A stretch of 64,000 nucleotides of DNA, taken from positions 2,633 to 66,632 of the forward strand of contig JBAWCJ010000468.1 in assembly GCA_049590215.1 (NCBI GenBank), given 5' to 3'. Below, piece after piece: positions 12,517 through 39,986 of this stretch. This stretch comes from Candidatus Sulfotelmatobacter sp. (lineage in GTDB: Bacteria; Acidobacteriota; Terriglobia; Terriglobales; Acidobacteriaceae). The notes under the pieces were generated by a model. The model saw only the letters and a list, made by a program, of their open reading frames with translations. It was not told the origin of the DNA and did not search any database. How positions within the stretch are numbered: the stretch's first letter is position 1; each line of letters starts with the position of its first letter. A program made the translations under genes and the position numbers.

Positions 12517-13614
12517 ATGGCCCCAAGCACGGCGGTCCGAATCGTGGAAAGAGATAAGAAACTAGCCCGGCCAACCAGTTCCGCGCCTGCGCCGGATTCC
12601 GAAGAAGCGATGCCGAGCATCGGCCCGCACAATCCCGCTCTGGGCGAGATTTATCAGCGTCTCTATCCGGAAATGCGGCGACCGAAACCCAATCAGGAAG
12701 CCATTGCCGCGGCTCTGCAAGCCATGCAGCGGCTCACCATGGAGTCCGATTCCGAAGCCGCCTCTGAAAACGCCGCTCTCGACACTACCTCGATCTCTCA
12801 CAATGCGTGCCATGCGTGCGGACATCACAATCGCGCGGGCAGCAAGTTCTGCGGCATGTGCGGCCTTCCCCTGGGAGCCGCGCCATCGCACTCGCCAGAT
12901 CCCACATCTTCGGTTCACGCCTTACCGGCTTTCGACCATGAGGACGTCCCGCAATTTCCACGAGCATCACGGGAAGCCGGTGACGAAGTTCATCCCCAGC
13001 CCGGGGCTCCCGCGGGCACCCATCACTACCACCACCACTACCATCATCACTATTTTCAGGGCGGCGCAGGGGCCGAGAGCGTCCCGCGTTCCAATGCATC
13101 CGAGAGCGCCCGCGAAGCCGATCGGATGAGAGTTGCCGCGGCCGCCAAGGGCGAACCCATGAGCCGCAGTGAGGCTGCGGTTCGCCGGCTCACGCAGGAA
13201 TGGGTTTTAGCCTGCAATACGCGGCAACTCGAAGAGCTGATGGAACTCTACGCGCCGGACGCGCTGGTGCTGCGTTCGAATCTTCCAGCGATCCGCGGCG
13301 CCGTGGCGGTTCGCGAGTTCTTCTTCGCCTCGCTCGAAGCCGGTCTGGGAGAAGTGGCCCTCGATCCCATGCGGGTCGAGGTTCTCGGCGATCTGGCTCA
13401 CGAAGTGGGACGTTACAGCGCACTGGTCCCGGGAACGGCGGGCAAGCGCCGCGAAGAGCGCGGCAAGTATCTCTGGGTTTTCGCCAAGCAGGCAAGCGGA
13501 GACTGGAAGCTGGTTTCGGAATGCTGGTCGAGCGACCTCACGCTTTCGGGCGCAGAGTCCGACATTCCCAAAGCTGCCGTTCCGTCCGCGAAGCCGCAGC
13601 CGCGGAAGGGCTAG
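12517..13614 (+). CDS. zinc-ribbon / His-Tyr-rich / DUF4440 (SnoaL-like) domain protein
   Basis: Zinc ribbon CHACGHHNRAGSKFCGMCG, HHYHHHYHHHY tract, and a C-terminal SnoaL/DUF4440-like segment (YAPDALVLRSNLPAIRGAVAVREFF...GDWKLVSECWS). Confidence 0.65.
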   Translation: MAPSTAVRIVERDKKLARPTSSAPAPDSEEAMPSIGPHNPALGEIYQRLYPEMRRPKPNQEAIAAALQAMQRLTMESDSEAASENAALDTTSISHNACHACGHHNRAGSKFCGMCGLPLGAAPSHSPDPTSSVHALPAFDHEDVPQFPRASREAGDEVHPQPGAPAGTHHYHHHYHHHYFQGGAGAESVPRSNASESAREADRMRVAAAAKGEPMSRSEAAVRRLTQEWVLACNTRQLEELMELYAPDALVLRSNLPAIRGAVAVREFFFASLEAGLGEVALDPMRVEVLGDLAHEVGRYSALVPGTAGKRREERGKYLWVFAKQASGDWKLVSECWSSDLTLSGAESDIPKAAVPSAKPQPRKG

Positions 13615-13617
13615 TGG

Positions 13618-14244
13618 TCAGTCTCCAGTGATCACTGCGTCCACTCCCAGCTTTCCCAACTCTTGGCGCAGCAGTTCCGGAGTCTGCATCTGGATTGTGT
13701 GCATGCCGAGCTTCGCGGCGCATTCCAGGTTCAACACGCGGTCGTCGATGAAACAGCACTCTTCCGGATTGAACTGCGTGATCTCAATCGCCAAACGATA
13801 AATGCCGCTCTCCGGCTTGCGCAATCCGACGAAGCAGGAGCTGACGAACAGCCGAAAGATTTCGCGCAAGCCGAACTTCTCGATGCGGTGCAGGTTCAAC
13901 TCGCGGGACTCGTTGTTGATCGTGCCCATAAAATATTTGCCGGAACCGGCGAGAGTGCGGGCGAAGGCGAGAACTTCCGGCACCGGCCGCGAAAGCGAGA
14001 ACATATAGTCGCGAAACTGCTCGCGAGTGAAGGGGCGATCGCGGTAAAACACAGTGCGATCCAGGTATTCGTCGAGCGTGATCTTGCCGCGCTCAAACGA
14101 CGAGACCACCATCTCGTGCCGCGAGGCAAAGTCTTTCTCGTCGAGATGGAAGCGTTCGAGCGCGGCCGCGCGCTCGGTGTGATCCCATGCGTTCGTGAGC
14201 AGCACTCCTCCAACATCCCAGAAGATGGCATGAATTTGCGGCAC
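13618..14244 (-). CDS. HAD-superfamily hydrolase (subfamily IA)
   Basis: Motif I variant FWDVGGVLL and motif IV FIDDRVLNLECAAKLGM. Confidence 0.8.
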   Translation of the reverse strand: MPQIHAIFWDVGGVLLTNAWDHTERAAALERFHLDEKDFASRHEMVVSSFERGKITLDEYLDRTVFYRDRPFTREQFRDYMFSLSRPVPEVLAFARTLAGSGKYFMGTINNESRELNLHRIEKFGLREIFRLFVSSCFVGLRKPESGIYRLAIEITQFNPEECCFIDDRVLNLECAAKLGMHTIQMQTPELLRQELGKLGVDAVITGD

Positions 14245-14694: not shown

Positions 14695-15978
14695 CTAGCG
14701 TTTGTAGACAGTGGTCTCGGGATGGTAGTTGCGCCAGTCAAACCAATAATCTTTCAGCGCCGGGACGCGGTCTAAACATTTTCCCTGCGCGGGCCCGGAA
14801 GTAGCGCAGCCTTGAAAGTTCCACTGGCTGGCGGTGGTGGCGTCGACTAACGTCCAAGCTTTTTTCCCGGCTGAGGTGTCGACAGTCTCATCGCCCTGCA
14901 GAAAGAATTCAGCGTCGCGGCCGTCGATGCGGCTGACGAAGACGCGGAAGGATTTGCCGTCGGGGCCTAGGACCAAGAGCAGCGGCGTGCCGTTGACGCG
15001 ATCGAGAACCGGAGACTGCTTGGCGAAAGCTTCCCAGGGATAGGCGCGGGCGACGCCGCCGACGGTGAGTCCGACGACTACATCGCGCGATTTAAGTTCA
15101 GTGCCGGGGAAGCTGATGACCACGGGCAGCTTGGCTACTTCCGGTTCCCAGTTGGGTTCGTACTCTTTCGCGTATCTGGCCACGGGTGCGAGCACCCGGC
15201 CACTGGGAGATTCGGTTCTCCACTCGCCGAAAGTTAGTTCGTCGCTGAGGACGAGCTCGAGCGTTGCGCCCTGAAGCGGGCCGTAGATTGCCTTGCCGGT
15301 GATCTGCTGCCACCAGGTTCCGGTTTCCTTATCGCGCATCAGGAAGTTCTGGTTGTTGATGCCGGCCAGATAAAAGTGCAGCACTCTTCCTTTTACCGTT
15401 CGCGTCCACACCAGACCGGTGTGACAGAGCGTTCAATAGGTGACGGCGATGGGCACGCCTCCGACGATGTCGTTGAGGACGTGATGGTAGGCCATCTGGC
15501 TGATGGGATAGGCGCGCGCGTCGCTGCCGAAGCGGACGGCCATGATCATCTCTTTGGGATCGAGCTTGCTTTCCGATTGAGCCAGGAATTGCGGGCCGGC
15601 GATGGGGTGGAACATCCACTCGAAATAGCTTTCACGCGCCATTACCGCGGAGAAGGTGACAAGCAGAAGAGTGAGCACGACCAGGGCTCGGCGCCAGGGG
15701 CCGGCGGTTCTCCACAGCGCGAAGGCGAGAACGAAACACGCGGCGCCTGCGGTCAGCGTGCCCAGAGGAGCGCGCTGGCGCAGAGCCATGGCAACCAAGA
15801 GTGCGCGCGGCGCCTGGTAGCGGAAGGGACGAATGATGAAGGCTGGAATCAAGAACAGGCCGACGGCCACGAAGGCGCAAAGGGAGAACAGAATCCACAT
15901 CCAGCGAGAGGAGTGGCGATTGTCTTGATCAGCAAGCTGGCCGCGGAACTCGTGCTCTGATAGTGAAGATGTGTTCAT
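14695..15978 (-). CDS. DUF3179-family membrane protein with one in-frame TGA (15435..15433): candidate selenoprotein (UxxC), alternatively a pseudogene or sequencing error
   Basis: ORFs 15433..15978 and 14695..15411 share a frame and are split only by TGA. The junction reads ...GGVPIAVTY-TGA-TLCHTGLVWTRTVKGRVLHFYLAGINNQNFLMRDKETGTWWQQ, a DUF3179-like core. The N-terminal part has 3-4 TM helices. Confidence 0.6.
15407..15423 (-). promoter_or_regulatory. SECIS-like hairpin 9 nt downstream of the in-frame UGA
   Basis: RNA reads CACACC-GGUCU-GGUGUG: a perfect 6-bp stem whose loop contains GGUC, as in the E. coli fdhF SECIS apical loop. Confidence 0.45.
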
Positions 15979-16050: not shown

Positions 16051-16096
16051 AGTACAAAAAGAGCACCCCCGGTCCGTTGAATCGGACCGGGGTGCT
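16051..16096 (-). terminator. intrinsic terminator after the pilX-like gene
   Basis: On the minus strand: AGCACCCCGGTCCG-attcaa-CGGACCGGGGGTGCT (14-15 bp GC-rich stem), followed by CUUUUUGU. Confidence 0.7.
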
Positions 16097-16114
16097 GGTT
16101 GGCGGTTTGTGAGC

Positions 16115-19100
16115 TTATTGTGGGGTGAAGTTCTGGTGATAGCTCAGACTGACCACGTCCTGGAACATGGGAGTTCCGGGAGGCAGCTGAGTCGGGTTCA
16201 GGAACTGCGTGTCGAAGAAATAGTTTCGCAGCGCGGGAGCGCCATACACGGTGTTGCAGCACTTGAACGCGCCCGTGAGGTACTGCGAGTAATACATGCT
16301 GATCAGCGAGCCCGCATAGTTCACGGTAGCGCTGCCGTTGTTAAGGCCGTCGCTGCGGTCCTCGATATAACGCAAGAAGTTATGCATACCGCCGTCGGTA
16401 CCGAAATCCTTCAAGCCGTCAGCGGAGGCCCAGCCCGGCTCGAAGAACGGGATGCTCTTACCGGCAGCAATCGCCATCCGGTAATAGCTATTGTTTCCGG
16501 GCCGGTTGAGTGCGACTCCTGGTTGCAGGAAGCTTTCGACATCGGTCCAGCCAGTCTTTGTAGTCGGCGTAGTACTCGTCGACGGTGGATTGGAGAGCAA
16601 TGTGACGGAATCGGCGATGATCGAAGCCGCCGAATGTGGGGCCGTCGTCGTGGCTCCGGCAGGCCACATTGGATCGGCCGCGCCGGTATTGTAATCTCCC
16701 CACACATAGACCGGTTCTTCCGAGGCAACGGTGAAGCCGTTTCCGCTGGTGGCCCCGCCCGTGGGCTGGGGCAAGTAACTGACACCGGCAGCGCTCATGC
16801 CGCCATCGACGAGGCGGAGTCCGTGACGCGGCCCGTAGACCACATTGTTCTGCGGATTTCCGGCGTACGCGGTGGCGCCCGTCGTTCCAGTGCCGATCGG
16901 ATACGTCTCGATGGTTCCATTCGGGGATCCGGTCGGCTCGTAGGTATAAGAGCTGCAATTCACCTGGTTCGTGCTCGTCCCGGCGGCCTGCGCCGGAATG
17001 GGGAAATACGGCGCGCTGTCGTAGGCGCCCAGCAATCCGAATCCCGCTGCCAGATTCTTTTGGCCGTAGTTGTCGAAGTAGCCGTCTTCGTCAACGTCTT
17101 CCGGCGAGTAAGAGTAGTACGTTGCTGGTTCCAGCTTGCCATCGGGTACGCCGGTGGAGGTCGAGCCGTTGATGGTGTCTTCCAGCCCGGATGCTCCTGT
17201 GATGCTGTTGTAAACGGTCGCGCCGGTAGGATTGGGATCGGGCAACATGCCACGGCGATCCGAGAAATACACGATGTAACCGTTAAAGTTGGTGTTGTTC
17301 ACCAACTTGCCGGTTCCGCCGGTATATGGAGCGGCGCCCTGCAGCCAGAGCCACAAGTTGCCCACGTCCAGCTCGACCACATTCATGATTCCAATCGGGC
17401 TGCACGGAGTGTAGACGGTCGTGTTCTTGGAGCCGGTTGTGTTGGAGGGACGCGTTGTAATGTCGCGCGGCTCGCCTTCGCGCGAGTCGTAGAAGTTGAG
17501 TGGAATCCAGTTGCTGGCAGTTCCGCCGCTATCAGTCGTATCGTTTTCGACGGAGCTGGCCGTTGCCACGCCCTGGTTGAGCTGCTGAAGAATCAAGATC
17601 GCCGGGCTGATAGGGTTGTAACACTGGGCCGCAGGCGGGTAGGTAGCTGAGCCGTAGAGTGGGCAAGCCGGGCTCGCACCTCCGACCACGTAGGGAGCCG
17701 TGGGGGGCGTGTTATAACCGCGGCCGAAGCCGTATCCCAGCCATTGCGTGGTGATTCCGACCCACGGGCCACCAGTACCACAGGCAGTTGCGCTGGTTTC
17801 TGGACAGTACTCGACGCGCAGCCATACGTGGGCGGCGTTCGGTGCGGCGCCGGCAGCGCTGGTTGGGTTGCTGGTGATCTGGCTGAGAAGCGGCCAATTA
17901 CTCCAGGCGTACGCCGTGGTCGGCGCGGCGGGGTTGGTGGGCGCAACCCATCCATTCGTCCCGGCTGTGGCCACGCCGTAGTACATGTAATCCGCCGGCA
18001 CGCCAGTGTAACCGCTGAGCACGACGGCCGCGGGCGTACCGCTAGCACCGACCGTTGTGATGCCGAGCTGTACGTCCTGTCCATCGCCGAGCGCGCCGCG
18101 TTCGGGGTGAAGATCCGCTTGAGTATCGGCCAGCAGGATGCGGATCGAAGCCTCATTATAGAAACGGGAACCGCTCAAGAGTGCAGTATCACTGGCTTGC
18201 GGTCGGCGAACGATGTCGATCGCCCCAACCTTAGAGGTCGAGACGAAGGGCAACTGCAGCGTGGTCGCGCCAGTCAATCCGTTGGTGATGAAGCTGTTGA
18301 ACGTGGTGGTGGAAATGCCCTTCCAGCCCGCGTTAGCGGCGCCTCCGCAATCGGCAGTGCAGGTGGCAGGGGCCGGAGGGGCTGGGAATCCGCCGGTCCA
18401 ACTGCCAGCGGAAAGCGCAATGCAATTCGCGGCTGGTCCGGTGCCCGGGGCACTTGGACAACCACCCGCAGCGTTGGGCACGTACACGGTTCCACCATAG
18501 CCATTGGAGGTCGGCCATCCATTCTCGAGCTGGGTGGTGATGACTTGGCCCACGGCTGCGATCTTATCGGTAAAGGTCAGGTTGTCGCCCGAGGCAAGGA
18601 AAAGATTTCCGTTGGTGTGAACCCGGCCGCCGAAATTGAAGTTGGGACCAGCAAAGTAATCGCAGTCGCCGTCGCAGAAGATTCCGAATTCGAAGGCGGG
18701 TAGGAGAGCCACTTCCACGGTGCGCGACAAGTTGACCGATGCGCCCGTGATGTTGGTAAGAGCCGCGTTGTTGGTGGCCTCACCGGCGGTGGACGCACGA
18801 GTCGCAGTTACGGTCAAGGTATAGGGAATGAGAGTCGCCACCATGCCCTGGTCGGAACCGGAACCCACGATATCCCAGTTGCCGGTCGGGTTACTAGTAG
18901 CACTAACAGAGACCCCGTTTTGACAGACTTGGTTTGTCGGCCAGCTAATGCCCTCGACGTAATTCATGCTGGTGATGTTCGAACCGTTAACCTGGGTGGG
19001 GAAATCGGCAGCAGCGGTGATGCCGCAAATGGCCAAGTAATTCGGGGTCTGCGACTGTTGGTACAGCTGGGAGAGTTCGGCAGTCAAGTTTTCGATGCCA

Positions 19101-19267
19101 GACTCCGCGCCGTAGAAGGCGAGACTGCCTTCCAGGTCGTTGCCGCCCATGCGTTCTTCATTGCTGACCATGTACAAAAGTCCCACGGCGATACCCGACA
19201 GCAGAACGGTCAACAATAATGCCGCGATGAGCGTGAAGCCTCGCGAATCTCGTTTACTCTTCCCCAT
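16115..19267 (-). CDS. giant PilX-N-terminal-domain protein (about 1050 aa), putative pilus-tip/adhesin minor pilin
   Basis: GGAGGA upstream of the ATG at 19267. N-terminus SRGFTLIAALLLTVLLSGIAVGLLYMVSNEERMGGN (PilX_N type). The remainder is Gly/Thr/Asn/Ala/Pro-rich. Last gene of the minor-pilin operon. Confidence 0.75.
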   Translation of the reverse strand: MGKSKRDSRGFTLIAALLLTVLLSGIAVGLLYMVSNEERMGGNDLEGSLAFYGAESGIENLTAELSQLYQQSQTPNYLAICGITAAADFPTQVNGSNITSMNYVEGISWPTNQVCQNGVSVSATSNPTGNWDIVGSGSDQGMVATLIPYTLTVTATRASTAGEATNNAALTNITGASVNLSRTVEVALLPAFEFGIFCDGDCDYFAGPNFNFGGRVHTNGNLFLASGDNLTFTDKIAAVGQVITTQLENGWPTSNGYGGTVYVPNAAGGCPSAPGTGPAANCIALSAGSWTGGFPAPPAPATCTADCGGAANAGWKGISTTTFNSFITNGLTGATTLQLPFVSTSKVGAIDIVRRPQASDTALLSGSRFYNEASIRILLADTQADLHPERGALGDGQDVQLGITTVGASGTPAAVVLSGYTGVPADYMYYGVATAGTNGWVAPTNPAAPTTAYAWSNWPLLSQITSNPTSAAGAAPNAAHVWLRVEYCPETSATACGTGGPWVGITTQWLGYGFGRGYNTPPTAPYVVGGASPACPLYGSATYPPAAQCYNPISPAILILQQLNQGVATASSVENDTTDSGGTASNWIPLNFYDSREGEPRDITTRPSNTTGSKNTTVYTPCSPIGIMNVVELDVGNLWLWLQGAAPYTGGTGKLVNNTNFNGYIVYFSDRRGMLPDPNPTGATVYNSITGASGLEDTINGSTSTGVPDGKLEPATYYSYSPEDVDEDGYFDNYGQKNLAAGFGLLGAYDSAPYFPIPAQAAGTSTNQVNCSSYTYEPTGSPNGTIETYPIGTGTTGATAYAGNPQNNVVYGPRHGLRLVDGGMSAAGVSYLPQPTGGATSGNGFTVASEEPVYVWGDYNTGAADPMWPAGATTTAPHSAASIIADSVTLLSNPPSTSTTPTTKTGWTDVESFLQPGVALNRPGNNSYYRMAIAAGKSIPFFEPGWASADGLKDFGTDGGMHNFLRYIEDRSDGLNNGSATVNYAGSLISMYYSQYLTGAFKCCNTVYGAPALRNYFFDTQFLNPTQLPPGTPMFQDVVSLSYHQNFTPQ

Positions 19268-19314
19268 ATATCTCTCTTCCTCCAAGCGCAACAGCCAGAA
19301 CTTCAGACCGCCGT

Positions 19315-20499
19315 TTATTGGCAAGCGGTAGTTTGGTCACTATAAGAATTGCAAAAACTCATATTGCGAGTGCTGACGGAACTCGCCAGATACATGCTCT
19401 GGGATTTCTTCCCTGCCTGCGTAACGCTCTCTCCCATCACCCAAATATTCACCTTCTGAATCAGGGCAGGCGAAAGCCCGGCTCCGATCGGATTGGACTG
19501 ATTCGCGCTGATAGTGCCCAGCGTGTTATTGATCACGTCGTAGCTGAACTGCAGGTTGATGATGTCATCAGCGACGGGAACGGCAGTCAGTCCGTTGACC
19601 TGACGCATCAGCCGCGGCGTTTGCAGAGTTCCGCCCGCAGGAGGAACCTGCAGGAAATACGTTACGGCGTAGAGACGGCAGACAGTGATGCAGGTGATGT
19701 TCGGAGGACAGCCGGCGGCGGCATAGGCGGTGGCGACAGAGGCGAGACTGTTGGTGCCGGTCTGGTTGAGATTGAGTGCGTCGCTGGTGGCGAAATTGAT
19801 CGTAGTGTTATTGGGGATACCGGTAATTTCACCGACCGCTGCGGCCTGCTGCACATAGCTTGTACCCTGATTGCCTTTGCCGGTGCCCGGGGTGTTAACA
19901 GTGAATAGCAAGAGGTCACCTACGTTGAGGCCGCCTGGGGCAAGGATGTTCGTGGGGTCGCCCGTAACGATGTTAGCCGGCGGCGCAGGGCCCACCGTGA
20001 CTTGGGTTGAACTGGGAAAACTAAATGCGAAGTTGACCAGAGGAAAATTGTAGTCGCAGTAGATCGAAGTGATGCTGTCATTCACGGCGGCGGGAGCGGC
20101 GGTGATGACCGCGGAACTCTGCACTCCGTTGCCAAAGCCCGGCAAGATGCCGTACATATAGTTAGCGACTCCGCTGCCGCTGAGCGGGTAAGTATCGCCG
20201 GTGACGTAGCAGGTGCCAGCCTGATTGCAGGCGACCTTGCTGGCGCCGTCGGCGGTGGCCAATTGCAGACCGCCGGAAGGCAGGCCAGCGCCGGCCATAC
20301 TAATGTCCTTGGTCATCAATTCGATGCCGGCCCGCATATTCTCCTGAGTATCGGCGCGCTGGGTCACGGTAAGGGTGGCGTTCATGCCCATGTTGAAAAG
20401 CTGGGTCATCGCCATGATGGCGATCAAGCCGATGGCGGAGGCGACGAGCATTTCCAAGAGGCTGAAGCCGCGTTGCGATTTTGAGATGGATATCTTCAT
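19315..20499 (-). CDS. PilW-like type IV minor pilin
   Basis: Prepilin N-methylation motif QRGFSLLEMLVASAIGLIAIMAM after a short leader (MKISISKS). Confidence 0.8.
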   Translation of the reverse strand: MKISISKSQRGFSLLEMLVASAIGLIAIMAMTQLFNMGMNATLTVTQRADTQENMRAGIELMTKDISMAGAGLPSGGLQLATADGASKVACNQAGTCYVTGDTYPLSGSGVANYMYGILPGFGNGVQSSAVITAAPAAVNDSITSIYCDYNFPLVNFAFSFPSSTQVTVGPAPPANIVTGDPTNILAPGGLNVGDLLLFTVNTPGTGKGNQGTSYVQQAAAVGEITGIPNNTTINFATSDALNLNQTGTNSLASVATAYAAAGCPPNITCITVCRLYAVTYFLQVPPAGGTLQTPRLMRQVNGLTAVPVADDIINLQFSYDVINNTLGTISANQSNPIGAGLSPALIQKVNIWVMGESVTQAGKKSQSMYLASSVSTRNMSFCNSYSDQTTACQ

Positions 20500-20512
20500 G
20501 GTTTTATTCGCC

Positions 20513-21118
20513 TCAGTGGTAGCTGGAGACCAGTCCGGCCACGGAGTAGGAGCGAGCCGGCCAGCCTGGTTTGGTGTAGGCAACGGTAATGGTGACGGCG
20601 ATAAGATTGGTGTTGGGAGCCCCACTCGGCAACGTCACCGGACTGAAGGTGATGCTGCGGGTGAAGTTGCTGAGGCTCTGGGTGACATCGTCGGCGGTGC
20701 CGAGAATGCCATCAGGGCCGGGAAGGACCAGGCATTCCACTCCGCCTGGGCACGCGGCGCCGGTGTCGGGAGCGGTGCAGGCGACGTCATCGCCCGTACC
20801 CACCAGACCATCGGGTCCAGCGCACTTCAGAGGAAGAGCCCCAGGCAGGAAGATGCCGCCGGCCGCAGTGTTGTTGATAGAGGAGAAAGGCAACTGCTGG
20901 CTATTGCGGGCGGTGTAGATGCTCTCCATCGCATCCAGTGCCTTGTGGCGGGCGATGAGATCTTCCTGCGCTGATTCGGTGGCGGCGATCGCGGTGCCGA
21001 AGGTGGCGATCAGCGCGAGCATGCTGATGCTCATGATCGCGATCGCGATCATGACTTCGATCAGTGTAAAGCCGCGCTGGGTTTGGAGCTTCCTGGTGGA
21101 TTTCTTAGTTTCAGTCAT
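20513..21118 (-). CDS. PilV-like type IV minor pilin
   Basis: QRGFTLIEVMIAIAIMSISMLALI prepilin motif. ATGA overlap with the upstream fimT-like gene. Confidence 0.8.
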   Translation of the reverse strand: MTETKKSTRKLQTQRGFTLIEVMIAIAIMSISMLALIATFGTAIAATESAQEDLIARHKALDAMESIYTARNSQQLPFSSINNTAAGGIFLPGALPLKCAGPDGLVGTGDDVACTAPDTGAACPGGVECLVLPGPDGILGTADDVTQSLSNFTRSITFSPVTLPSGAPNTNLIAVTITVAYTKPGWPARSYSVAGLVSSYH

Positions 21119-21771
21119 TGCTGCACCCATTCCTTCACGCCACCTACCAGACCAATCGTCCATCCGCGGATTCTGCCGGTTGCGCCCCACACTGACACGG
21201 CTCGCGAATTGTAGATAGTGTCGCCAACCCGCGTGAGATAGACGATGCCGGAGACGTAGGAACCGCTACTTCCCACAACGCCTGCCTGCGCGGAGCCGTC
21301 GGGCATGAAGACCACGCATTGACAGAGCAGGGGGACGCCGGGCGTAGACGTAGATTCGAAATCGATCGCGGTGCCCCCAGTGACAAGTGGAGGAGGTGAG
21401 TCCGGCGCGTTGGCGGGGGGGCTCGCTGGCAGGGCAAAAGAGACATCCCCCGGAATGGTGTAGGTGTTGACTTGCTCAGGCGGAGGCGCGGCCACGGCGG
21501 GAGGCACGAGAGGTGGCTGATACACGACCTGAATGGTGCCGGCAGGAAAGCCGGCCGGATTGAAATTGACCTGGTACTGGTGACCCTGAGTGATAGCCAG
21601 GTTGCGAGTGTTGCGCAGGGCCATCAAAGTGGTCTCATACGCCGAGTTCATGTGGGCGCTATTCATTGAGGGCGTCAGGTAGATGAACGTGACCCCGCAC
21701 ATCACCAGGCCGAGGCTGACGGTGATCATCAGTTCGAGGAGCGAGAACCCGTTATTTTTGCGCGATGGCAT
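21115..21771 (-). CDS. FimT/GspH-like type IV minor pilin
   Basis: NNGFSLLELMITVSLGLVMCGVTFI prepilin motif. First gene of the operon. Confidence 0.8.
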   Translation of the reverse strand: MPSRKNNGFSLLELMITVSLGLVMCGVTFIYLTPSMNSAHMNSAYETTLMALRNTRNLAITQGHQYQVNFNPAGFPAGTIQVVYQPPLVPPAVAAPPPEQVNTYTIPGDVSFALPASPPANAPDSPPPLVTGGTAIDFESTSTPGVPLLCQCVVFMPDGSAQAGVVGSSGSYVSGIVYLTRVGDTIYNSRAVSVWGATGRIRGWTIGLVGGVKEWVQQ

Positions 21772-22136
21772 AAGTTCCTTACCGGTCGTGAACCTCGTAT
21801 AGTCTGCTGACCGCAATCAACCCAACCTCATCCCAAGATTTCTGAGCCAAGATTTCCAAGAGCCCAACCGGACAGAGAACACCTGCGACCGTCGGGGAGC
21901 AGGCCAACCGGCACTGCCTACGGTGGGGCAGTCTTCATCCTAGGAAGGTGGGGTGATGGCGTCAAAGCACCACGGTGCAACGCAGGAGTATTGGTCTTTT
22001 GTAATCGCGGTGGTGACTGAGGTCACTGGGGTTGAGGGCAGTGGAGTTAGGTGATGGACCAAGGGAAACCGGGGTAGTGGGGATGACCGCGGTAACTTGT
22101 CGGAAGAACTGGGGTGATCCTAGGATGCATGAAGGT

Positions 22137-23279
22137 ATGACTCTCTCATCGCTCTTAGTCTGCTCGGACAATGCATCCGTGGAAGTGCTGCGGCAGGTGC
22201 TGGAAGAACTCAGCATTCAGGTGGAGTTGTGCACCGACAACGTGCGCGCGGCGGTGAGGCTGGCGCAGGAACGCTATGACCTGATCATTCTTGACTGCGA
22301 AACGCAGGCAGGGGTATTGGCGTTATTGCACGAGAGCCGGTCTTCGCGACTTAACGATTCGACTCTGACCGTGGTGGTAGTTGCGGGGCAGGAGAGCATC
22401 CGGGAGATGTTTTCCCTCGGAGTAAATTTCGTGCTGTACAAGCCGGTGTCGCACGAGCGGGCGTTGAGTACGCTGCGGGCGGCGCAAACCGTGCTGCACC
22501 GGGATAAACGCCGCAAGGCGCGCGCCGCCGTGCATACCCATGCGACCATCGACTACGCCGGCGAAGAACGAGCCAAAGCTACGCTGGTGAACCTGGCGGA
22601 AGATGGCATGGGAGTGAACTTCGGCAAGAAGCTGCCGCCGACCTGCAAGGTTTATTTTCAGTTTCAGTTGCCCGGCCAGATGAAGAATGTGCGGCTCTCG
22701 GGACAGGTGGTTTGGCAGGATTGGAACGGTCGCGCAGGAATCCAGTTTGTGGATGTGCCGCAAGCATCGCGGCGGGTGCTGCAGGAGTGGTTGAAGGTGA
22801 ACGTTGCCGAAGCGCCGGAGCCGGCTGCTGAGGCGGAGACGGTTGAGCCTTCCATCCGGCCGAATGAAGATTCGGGTGCGGTCGAGCAGCAGGTTGAGCG
22901 GCAGGAAACAAACGGCCGTGACGGCGAAGCCGGAGCTCGCCTTCGCGGCGAGCCGGACAACCGGCGCGGCCAGACTCGATATGCGTGCCGTCTGGGCGCG
23001 GAAGTTTACCAGAGGGGGAGCTCCGTGCGGAACTACTGCCATCTGAGCGATCTGAGCCCCGGTGGATGCTACCTCGAGATGCCTCTGGCCTTTCCAGCCG
23101 GCACACCGGTAGAGATCACGGTGCGCACCCAGGATATGAAATTGCGCCTGAGCGGTGTAGTGAAAGCCTCGCATCCCGGCTACGGGATGGGCATCTCGTT
23201 CAAGCTGAACACCAGGGACGAACGCCACGGGGTGCAGCAGTTGATCGACTTCGCGGCGACTATGACCGAGAAGTCTTAA
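22137..23279 (+). CDS. receiver (REC) domain protein with two PilZ domains (c-di-GMP effector-like)
   Basis: REC-like N-terminus (LLVCSDN...DLIILDCE...KP). PilZ motif pairs are RRKAR...NLAEDG and RRGQTR...DLSPGG. The start is 22125 or 22137. Confidence 0.75.
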   Translation: MTLSSLLVCSDNASVEVLRQVLEELSIQVELCTDNVRAAVRLAQERYDLIILDCETQAGVLALLHESRSSRLNDSTLTVVVVAGQESIREMFSLGVNFVLYKPVSHERALSTLRAAQTVLHRDKRRKARAAVHTHATIDYAGEERAKATLVNLAEDGMGVNFGKKLPPTCKVYFQFQLPGQMKNVRLSGQVVWQDWNGRAGIQFVDVPQASRRVLQEWLKVNVAEAPEPAAEAETVEPSIRPNEDSGAVEQQVERQETNGRDGEAGARLRGEPDNRRGQTRYACRLGAEVYQRGSSVRNYCHLSDLSPGGCYLEMPLAFPAGTPVEITVRTQDMKLRLSGVVKASHPGYGMGISFKLNTRDERHGVQQLIDFAATMTEKS

Positions 23280-38546: not shown

Positions 38547-39986
38547 ATGATTAGCCGTAGACGTGACGTTCTCTTAAATGCGCTCAAGTTGTTCGACCTG
38601 GCGGTGATGGTGGTCGCTTTCGGACTGGCCGCCATACCAACATCAGGAGTGGGTCATACCATCTCGATGGCCGATTTTCTCTCCATGCGGGTCAAGGTGG
38701 GGAACTGCTTCATTTTTCTTGGCTTGATCATTCTGTGGCACGCTTTGTTTTCGATGTGCGGCTTATATGCGTCGCGCCGGCTCTCTGGCCGCATCGCTGA
38801 AGTCACCGACATTATGAAGGCAACCTCGCTAGGCACGCTCTGCCTGGCGGGTGCATCCATGCTGTTTCACATCCGTATGGCAACTCCTGCCTTCGCGGTG
38901 GTTTTCTGGTCTCTCAGCACCCTGATGCTGATTTGCAGCAGACTCACGATGAGGGCTGTGCTGGTGCAAACCCGCTTGCACGGACGAAATCTTCGCCACA
39001 TGCTGATCGTGGGCAGCAATGCCCGTGCCGTTCAATTTGCCGATAAGATCCAGTCCCGGCCCGAGCTTGGCTATCGGGTAATCGGATTCGCCGACCAACC
39101 GTGGGAGGGTATCGGTCAGGTCAGCGAAAGCGGCTATTCTCTGGCTTGCAACCTCGACAGCCTGCCTGATTTTCTCCGGAAAAGCGTGGTGGACGAGGTC
39201 GTGATTGCTTTGCCGATACGATCATTCCACGACGACGCCTCTCGAATCGCGGCGCTCTGCGAGGAGCAAGGCATTCTCTCCCGAGTTCTGACCAACATCT
39301 TCAATCTCAAGATGGCGCGCTCGCATGCCGAAGACCTGGAAGGCGACTCCTGGATTACGCATCAAAATGGAGTCACCGAAGGCTGGCCGCTGATTGTGAA
39401 ACGGATCGTCGATTTCGCGGTTGCGCTGGTCGCGGTTATCGTCATCCTTCCGGTTATGCTTCTGGTGGCGCTGGTGATCAAGATGACCTCACCCGGCCCC
39501 GTTCTTTTTGCCCAGAAGAGGGTTGGACATAACAAGCGAAAGTTCACCATGTTTAAATTCCGGACCATGGTGGTCGATGCCGAACAGCAAATGGAGCAAC
39601 TGCAACACCTGAACGAGGTCACTGGGCCGGTATTCAAAATCAAGAACGATCCACGCATTACTCCGATCGGGAAATTCCTACGCAAGACGAGTCTCGACGA
39701 GGTGCCGCAGTTGTTCAGCGTGTTGAAGGGGGATATGAGTCTGGTGGGCCCGCGGCCACTCCCCATCCGCGACTACGAAGGCTTCAATGAAGACTGGCAG
39801 CGCCGGCGTTTCAGTGTGAAGCCCGGAATCACTTGCTTATGGCAGGTTCAGGGGCGGAGTTCCATTTCATTTGAAAAATGGATGGAGCTGGATCTTCAAT
39901 ACATCGACAAGTGGTCCCTGTGGCTCGATTTCCAGATCTTGCTGCAGACCATCCCGGCCGTGCTCAAGGGCTCGGGCGCTGTTTGA
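38547..39986 (+). CDS. priming polyprenyl-phosphate sugar-phosphate transferase (WcaJ/EpsB-type bacterial sugar transferase)
   Basis: AAGGAG upstream. Multi-TM N-terminus. C-terminal KRIVDFAVAL...KRVGHNKRKFTMFKFRTM...DEVPQLFSVLKGDMSLVGPRP. Confidence 0.9.
   Translation: MISRRRDVLLNALKLFDLAVMVVAFGLAAIPTSGVGHTISMADFLSMRVKVGNCFIFLGLIILWHALFSMCGLYASRRLSGRIAEVTDIMKATSLGTLCLAGASMLFHIRMATPAFAVVFWSLSTLMLICSRLTMRAVLVQTRLHGRNLRHMLIVGSNARAVQFADKIQSRPELGYRVIGFADQPWEGIGQVSESGYSLACNLDSLPDFLRKSVVDEVVIALPIRSFHDDASRIAALCEEQGILSRVLTNIFNLKMARSHAEDLEGDSWITHQNGVTEGWPLIVKRIVDFAVALVAVIVILPVMLLVALVIKMTSPGPVLFAQKRVGHNKRKFTMFKFRTMVVDAEQQMEQLQHLNEVTGPVFKIKNDPRITPIGKFLRKTSLDEVPQLFSVLKGDMSLVGPRPLPIRDYEGFNEDWQRRRFSVKPGITCLWQVQGRSSISFEKWMELDLQYIDKWSLWLDFQILLQTIPAVLKGSGAV

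Follow-up and report, generated by a model that had tools for sequence, protein, structure and literature searches.

A DUF3179 gene of Candidatus Sulfotelmatobacter with a predicted selenocysteine codon and a near-invariant SECIS-type hairpin shared across soil Terriglobia

A stretch of 64,000 nucleotides (nt) from Candidatus Sulfotelmatobacter sp. (contig JBAWCJ010000468.1), referred to here as the window, carries on its minus strand a gene of the DUF3179 family that is interrupted by a single in-frame TGA, with a short hairpin beginning 9 nt after it. This gene is an unannotated member of a selenoprotein family that has already been catalogued, and not the first member of a new one. We assign a probability of about 0.88 to the reading in which the TGA, at residue 182, is decoded as selenocysteine (Sec) and the hairpin acts as the insertion signal. 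An earlier note, written from the sequence alone, had described two same-frame minus-strand open reading frames (ORFs) split only by this TGA, a contiguous DUF3179 core running across the stop, and a perfect 17-nt hairpin behind it; all three observations hold. The features of the gene and the variants of the hairpin are collected in Table 1.

The 5′ ORF (15433..15978) encodes 181 amino acids (aa), the last of which are ..VPIAVTY before the TGA, and the 3′ ORF (14695..15411), in the same frame, encodes 238 aa. Both the sequence and its translation agree that the TGA at 15435..15433 is the sole separator between the two, and the gene has no further stops or frameshifts. When the TGA is read through, the translation is ..NDIVGGVPIAVTY-U-TLCHTGLVWTRTVKG..WWQQ.., in a frame of 427 codons whose own stop is the TAG at 14697..14695. 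When Cys is substituted at the TGA, the protein has a match to Pfam PF11376 (DUF3179) with an E-value of 6e-62 and 210.1 bits, the gathering cut-off of this profile being 27 bits. The match spans residues 126-422 and profile positions 7-292 of 292. It therefore lies on both sides of the TGA, and a single domain crosses the stop. No match to the protein was found in NCBIfam or in a sequence search of the PDB.

DUF3179 (PF11376) is listed as a prokaryotic selenoprotein family with the motif UxxC/T in two catalogues (PMC9312934, PMC13188914), both of which credit the study of the Olavius algarvensis delta-1 symbiont by Zhang and Gladyshev (2007). Judging from the order of the tables, the family is probably the one called OS_HP1 in that study (three genes, two Cys homologues). 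The supplement of the deep-Sep paper gives a reference protein, MDJ0986319.1, which reads ..NGKPIAVTF-U-PLTQTGVVYSR.. around its Sec. A BLASTP comparison of MDJ0986319.1 with the window protein showed 27% identity (E 5e-31), and U102 of the former pairs with residue 182 of the latter. The proposal of the earlier note that DUF3179 is a new selenoprotein family was thus abandoned, since the family is already catalogued and the published Sec aligns with the TGA column of the window. What is new is a large clade from soil Terriglobia that combines UxxC with three N-terminal membrane helices and has an unusually uniform selenocysteine insertion sequence (SECIS). In the literature, no paper was found that links Sulfotelmatobacter to selenocysteine.

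Conservation of the TGA was assessed in a scan of one genome per species, which comprised 80 loci from Acidobacteriaceae, Ca. Sulfotelmatobacter and other Terriglobia metagenome-assembled genomes. Residues 1-427 were matched across the stop by tblastn at these loci, with protein identities of 66-90%, and the TGA stands at the residue-182 column in 79 of them, both halves of the gene being open. Median identity to the window is 77% and 84% for the two sides of the TGA, and synonymous sites are free to vary. The best 120 database homologues (82-97% identity, 234-246 aa) cover only the 3′ 54-56% of the query, which puts the break in the gene at one and the same position in each. A protein search of 1.84 billion representatives with the window protein returned relatives of two types, namely many truncated forms with 38-56% identity and an N-terminus of MW.. 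or VW.., and full-length forms with CxxC at the site. The DNA of five truncated forms and 80 metagenome contigs supplied 85 further loci, some of them about 38-48% identical in protein. The TGA occupies the column in 83; in the other two the column was simply not located by the pattern.

The residue that the TGA replaces was identified from a diverse set of 52 full-length homologues (25-44% identical). At residue 182, 49 of them have Cys and 3 have Ser, and at residue 185, 48 have Cys. Three homologues show Ser in the CxxC, at either or both of its Cys positions, and P0157 and P0168, which were read directly, have SxxS. The stop therefore stands, as the earlier note had suggested, at the first Cys of a conserved CxxC. 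TGA-containing orthologues with conserved flanks do exist in relatives, and the additional disabling changes that the note had named as a sign of decay are absent from the gene. Retention of the TGA in 79 species with an intact gene, at the position of an essential-looking Cys, implies that a decoding system is needed.

Two sequences depart from this pattern at the Sec column. The sole species locus without the TGA (L048:3526-3600, JBAVUV010000723.1) reads AGA there; its hairpin loop carries a G-to-T change (CCTGTC), and an extra in-frame stop follows 23 codons further on. It resembles a copy in decay that has lost its Sec codon and its SECIS jointly, or a poor assembly. The product of a short contig, P0203, has Trp at the same column, probably because the gene was called with genetic code 4.

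The hairpin CACACC-GGUCU-GGUGUG is perfect, and a seventh pair, U.G, is possible between 15424 and 15406. Its minimum free energy (MFE) is -7.7 kcal/mol for the 17-mer and -13.4 kcal/mol with the lower stem. A codon alignment of the 80 species contains 206 columns with a conserved, degenerate amino acid. Six of these columns use a single codon throughout, and the mean synonymous entropy apart from these six is 1.04 bits. Five of the six are consecutive and correspond to the hairpin codons +4 to +8 (CAC ACC GGT CTG GTG), a run for which a permutation test gave p < 1e-5; codon +3 (TGT) is close to fixed. The codon alignment thus indicates that the constraint on codons +4 to +8 acts on the RNA and not on the protein. 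The remaining monomorphic column is the Tyr codon that directly precedes the UGA. Elsewhere in the gene both TAT and TAC are used for Tyr, and TAC is found at this -1 position in distant metagenome forms. The invariant codon may reflect a codon-context effect on recoding.

The exact sequence CACACC-GGTCT-GGTGTG is present in about 144 of the 163 loci with a located column (further loci, window and species loci taken together). The variants that occur (Table 1) follow a common rule: either pairing survives the change, or a new stem takes shape around an unchanged loop. Across 61 distinct sequences, 98.1% of cells pair, and shifting the 3′ partner by one to three columns lowers this value to 28-53%. 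The double change of the closing pair from C-G to G.U was seen in four distinct sequences, and so was the change from A-U to G.U. The most divergent form belongs to a soil metagenome clade reading ..U-TLC-HTALVW (L104, L110, L112, L115, L116, L135 and L142), with its hairpin within about 40 nt after the TGA. In this clade the His codon is no longer paired and varies between CAC and CAT.

These observations are consistent with a pathway in which the hairpin 9 nt downstream of UGA-182 would act as a bacterial SECIS (bSECIS) during translation. The element would bind SelB carrying Sec-tRNA(Sec), and selenocysteine would be delivered at the UGA in place of release factor 2. The predicted product of this recoding is one 427-aa DUF3179 selenoprotein with the motif U182-T-L-C185. 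Binding of SelB and incorporation of selenium at residue 182 are suggested by the conservation pattern. A published bSECIS model (PMC13188914) describes a loop of 3-9 nt, an upper stem of 4-16 bp, an MFE of -7.5 kcal/mol or lower, a G at loop position 1 or 2 with a G or U after it, and 16-37 nt from the UGA to the loop. The window hairpin, with a loop of 5 nt, a stem of 6-7 bp and an MFE of -7.7 or -13.4 kcal/mol, falls within the first three ranges. Its loop, GGUCU, has the expected G, and the GG is retained in most variant clades, including the one with the rebuilt hairpin.

Several points weigh against Sec decoding at this codon. Neither the 64-kb window nor about 0.8 Mb of DNA flanking related loci yielded a selA, selB, selD or tRNA-Sec gene. 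The search was done by tblastn with the E. coli SelA, SelB, SelD and FdhF proteins on the window, the 80 genome loci and the 85 further loci; FdhF found nothing in any of these, and ARAGORN found no tRNA gene in the 64-kb window. The spacing between the UGA and the loop is 15 intervening nt, one under the 16-37 range of the bSECIS model, or 18 if counted from the U of the UGA; the spacing in E. coli fdhF is 18 intervening nt, and the counting convention of the model is not stated in the text of that paper. Folding of 45-66 nt around the hairpin is no better than that of shuffled sequences (z -0.3 to -1.05). The genuine fdhF SECIS reached a z of only -1.56 in the same test. These scores fail for the window hairpin and for a real SECIS alike; the evidence beyond chance is conservation and not stability. 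Covariation is thin because the hairpin is almost invariant. There was also no Rfam match, either in the window at the gathering thresholds or in 15300..15500 at E-values up to 10, where nothing meaningful appeared. In addition, the functional reading given below rests on Foldseek matches that are weak (E about 0.02) and on the predicted model of a Cys homologue with 43% identity.

If the TGA were a true stop, the locus would give two polypeptides, a membrane protein of 181 aa and, by a restart at the GTG at 15411, a second one of 238 aa, and the conserved nucleotides would be a restart or coupling signal. This is how gene callers annotate the locus, the best 120 matches all being the 3′ fragment, and the GTG is located 21 nt after the stop and within the invariant stretch. 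However, the seven codons that lie between the TGA and the GTG (TLCHTGL) show in-frame conservation and supply the rest of the CxxC, and the split would cut one beta domain in the middle of a beta hairpin. The invariant stretch has no Shine-Dalgarno-like sequence, the Cys homologues are single polypeptides, and the clade with the rebuilt stem retains the loop and not the sequence around the GTG. The GTG is probably not a real start, and a split gene is highly improbable. The TGA could instead mark a pseudogene, or be a sequencing or assembly error for TGC or TGT. The TGA is nonetheless shared by 79 of 80 independent species assemblies and by 83 further contigs, amino acids are strongly conserved on both sides while synonymous sites vary, and there are no other stops or frameshifts. 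Set against this are the general look of a fresh pseudogene, which a single in-frame stop does have, and the decayed appearance of the related locus L048 (AGA, loop mutation, second stop). A pseudogene or an error has a negligible probability, and these readings, like that of a split gene, are effectively excluded.

Another tRNA could also read the UGA. In that case a suppressor, either an allo-tRNA with a UCA anticodon or a SelC*-like tRNA-Cys, would place Cys, Ser or another residue at position 182, and the hairpin would serve suppression or something else. Acidobacterial allo-tRNAs have been described as possible nonsense suppressors, and in deltaproteobacteria Cys is reported to be placed at UGA by tRNAs that mimic tRNA-Sec (PMC5389517). 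Suppression does not account well for the fact that DUF3179 is catalogued as Sec-containing at the same column, nor for the SelB-type loop GGUCU, which is retained even where the stem has been rebuilt. Other genes in the window end normally at TGA, as in the HAD gene (13620..13618) and two ORFs with their ends at 39986 and 59394, which excludes a genome-wide reassignment of the code. Genuine selenoproteins are also found in Terriglobales isolates: Occallatibacter riparius (Terriglobales, Acidobacteriota) is a documented Sec user with 3 selenoproteins, and four selenoproteins were known from Acidobacteria in 2006. A suppressor tRNA is accordingly improbable, and decoding of TGA-182 as selenocysteine is the favored explanation.

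Table 1. Features of the DUF3179 locus in the window and variants of the hairpin in related loci.
Feature	Position	Strand	Loci	Remarks
Complete gene of the predicted selenoprotein	14695..15978	minus		ATG 15978..15976, Sec-TGA 15435..15433, TAG 14697..14695; 427 aa
Predicted Sec codon TGA, residue 182	15433..15435	minus		Conserved TGA column; Cys in homologues; aligned with published Sec
U-T-L-C motif, residues 182-185 (CxxC of DUF3179)	15424..15435	minus		C182 and C185 in at least 90% of 52 homologues
DUF3179 domain, residues 126-422, two tandem beta repeats	14713..15603	minus		Pfam, BLAST internal repeat, structure model; TGA inside repeat 1
N-terminal membrane region, three hydrophobic segments (about 27-49, 70-89, 96-116)	15631..15900	minus		Hydropathy; helices in the P0132 model
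GTG called as start of the 238-aa 3′ fragment	15409..15411	minus		Inside the 3′ arm of the hairpin
Predicted SECIS hairpin	15407..15423	minus		5′ arm CACACC 15423..15418, loop GGUCU 15417..15413, 3′ arm GGUGUG 15412..15407
Tyr codon TAT directly 5′ of the UGA	15436..15438	minus		Sixth monomorphic codon, TAT in all 80 species genomes
Terminator-like hairpin, 3′ end of the PilX-like gene	16067..16092	minus		Upstream of the DUF3179 gene
Variant CGCACC in the 5′ arm (His to Arg)			4	A-U becomes G.U
Variant ACC to ACG with CTG to ATT or GTT			4	Closing pair C-G becomes G.U, both sides changed
Variant Cys codon (TGT or TGC)			Both common	U.G and C-G alternate as the seventh pair
Variant of the ..HTALVW clade			7	Usual stem destroyed; new 7-bp stem CCGCUCU/GGAGCGG, 4 nt downstream, loop GGUCUG

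The architecture of the protein was studied with an AlphaFold2 model based on a 53-sequence alignment headed by the Cys homologue P0132, which is 43% identical to the window protein and has the same CTLCHTGLVW. The model (predicted local distance difference test score 95, predicted template modeling score 0.91) consists of three long N-terminal helices followed by an all-beta region, with the CxxC at the turn that links two strands. DUF3179 contains two copies of one beta domain of about 120 aa, an internal duplication seen in a second BLAST segment in which repeat 2 of the window protein aligns with repeat 1 of MDJ0986319.1. The near-invariant residues H165, D170, C182 and C185 are retained in repeat 1 only. 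Several members of the family have N-termini of the signal-peptide, lipoprotein-box or twin-arginine-like type, which suggests that the DUF3179 domain probably lies outside the cytoplasm; the beta domains of the window protein probably face the same side. The product would therefore be anchored by three N-terminal membrane helices and carry two tandem Rieske-like beta domains. The first of these domains would hold the U-x-x-C in the turn of a beta hairpin, beside His165 and Asp170, which are invariant in the family. Some distant members of the family have several DUF3179 units in a single polypeptide: P0138 (1587 aa) has six matched stretches, and P0178 (1004 aa) has two CPLC motifs.

We infer that the U-x-x-C is most likely a redox-active selenenylsulfide center or a Se/S/His metal-binding site. 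A catalytic Sec is somewhat favored by the published UxxT form, and a metal site by the knuckle-like turn with the invariant His nearby. A more specific proposal, that U182 is a selenium ligand of a metal or iron-sulfur center in an exported, membrane-anchored Rieske-like domain, together with Cys185, His165 and possibly His166 or Asp170, is doubtful. If it were true, this would be a new kind of selenium metal site, widespread in soil Acidobacteria. To our knowledge, Se-ligated metal sites are confined to molybdo- and tungsto-pterin enzymes and [NiFeSe] hydrogenases. A haem-c site (CxxCH) was rejected, and its seleno-linked variant is nearly excluded, as the residue after the second Cys is His in only 11 of the 52 homologues (Arg in 22, Asn in 11). 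The Sec forms at L086 and L091-L093 have Arg at that position, and the window reads U-T-L-C-H. The viral fold library returned nothing useful.

The DUF3179 gene is located between a minor-pilin cluster upstream and a HAD hydrolase gene downstream, an arrangement that is syntenic in about 59 of the 80 loci, and in about the same number the PilX-like gene adjoins the DUF3179 gene. A terminator-like hairpin follows the PilX-like gene, so that the DUF3179 gene starts its own transcription unit. The upstream cluster (16115..21816, minus strand) resembles type IV pilus minor-pilin genes and encodes a protein of 1069 aa that begins with a PilX N-terminal domain, as well as three proteins that carry N-terminal methylation motifs; beyond it, on the plus strand, is a gene for a response-regulator/PilZ protein (22032..23279). 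The gene at 12517..13614 (plus strand), which is syntenic in about 50 of the 80 related loci, encodes a 365-aa protein in which a zinc-ribbon motif and a histidine/tyrosine run (HHYHHHYHHHYF) are combined with a SnoaL/DUF4440 domain at the C-terminus. The neighboring genes are uninformative on the function of DUF3179. The window was also scanned for other in-frame TGAs flanked by long open frames, and no second selenoprotein candidate was found; the scan returned shadow ORFs and ordinary gene ends only. One of several long antisense ORFs is a frame of 513 aa at 16109..17650 (plus strand), opposite the PilX-like gene. Such frames are the usual shadow ORFs of GC-rich DNA and make up most of the in-frame-TGA pairs of the scan.

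The Terriglobia clade opens neither a new family nor a new mechanism, and its interest lies in annotation, in the use of selenium by soil Acidobacteria and in a natural series of SECIS elements. As the gene is cut at the TGA in the 120 closest entries and there is no NCBIfam model, annotation pipelines will keep missing the DUF3179 selenoprotein. At least 80 species-level genomes of Terriglobia from peat and soil contain the gene, as do many contigs from soil metagenomes. Given this wide presence, its product may rank among the more common selenoproteins of soil Acidobacteria, and the gene may mark the lineages that carry it as dependent on selenium. The compact, near-invariant 17-mer, together with the rebuilt stem that carries the same loop, is a clean natural test case for SelB recognition, and the Terriglobia SECIS might work in E. 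coli reporters.

The closest known system is the published DUF3179 selenoprotein. MDJ0986319.1 belongs to the same Pfam family and shares the Sec column (..VTF-U-PLT.. versus ..VTY-U-TLC.. in the window), and in both cases Cys homologues exist and a stem-loop follows the UGA. The two differ in that MDJ0986319.1 has UxxT and a single signal or anchor, whereas the window clade has UxxC and three N-terminal membrane helices. The window clade comes from soil Terriglobia (Acidobacteriota), a group that is unnamed in the 2026 review.

At the level of the fold, the best PDB matches of the P0132 model in Foldseek were Rieske iron-sulfur domains (probability 1.0, template modeling score 0.54-0.64 per target). 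They include the Rieske [2Fe-2S] proteins PetC3 (5cxm) and Chlorobaculum Rieske (8hn2), and the likeness extends over about 90 aligned columns. Rieske proteins bind their cluster through the motif CxH...CxxH. In DUF3179, conserved His residues at 165-166 precede the C-x-x-C turn by 15-16 residues, a distance that resembles the spacing of the two Rieske ligand boxes. The pattern in DUF3179 is nevertheless H165(H166)...C182xxC185, and there is no sequence similarity between the two families. With the Rieske ligands absent and the fold likeness weak, a Rieske cluster site was rejected.

For the hairpin, the closest known counterpart is the SECIS of E. coli fdhF, described in the earlier note as a 17-nt stem-loop about 11 nt from the UGA. 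The real K-12 sequence agrees, with the UGA followed by 11 nt and then by GGUUGCA-GGUCU-GCACC. Both elements are 17-nt stem-loops shortly after the UGA, their apical GGUCU is identical, and their role as a SelB binding site is presumably the same. The label fdhF-like is appropriate for the loop and the size and not for the rest. The fdhF stem has a bulged U (GGU-U-GCA) while the window stem is a perfect 6 bp, and the window stem starts 9 nt after the UGA instead of 11. The GGU is at +19 to +21 in the window and at +22 to +24 in fdhF, 3 nt nearer to the UGA. The host protein of the fdhF element is unrelated to DUF3179. By analogy, the window hairpin, as a predicted SECIS, would work like the fdhF element without being a copy of it.

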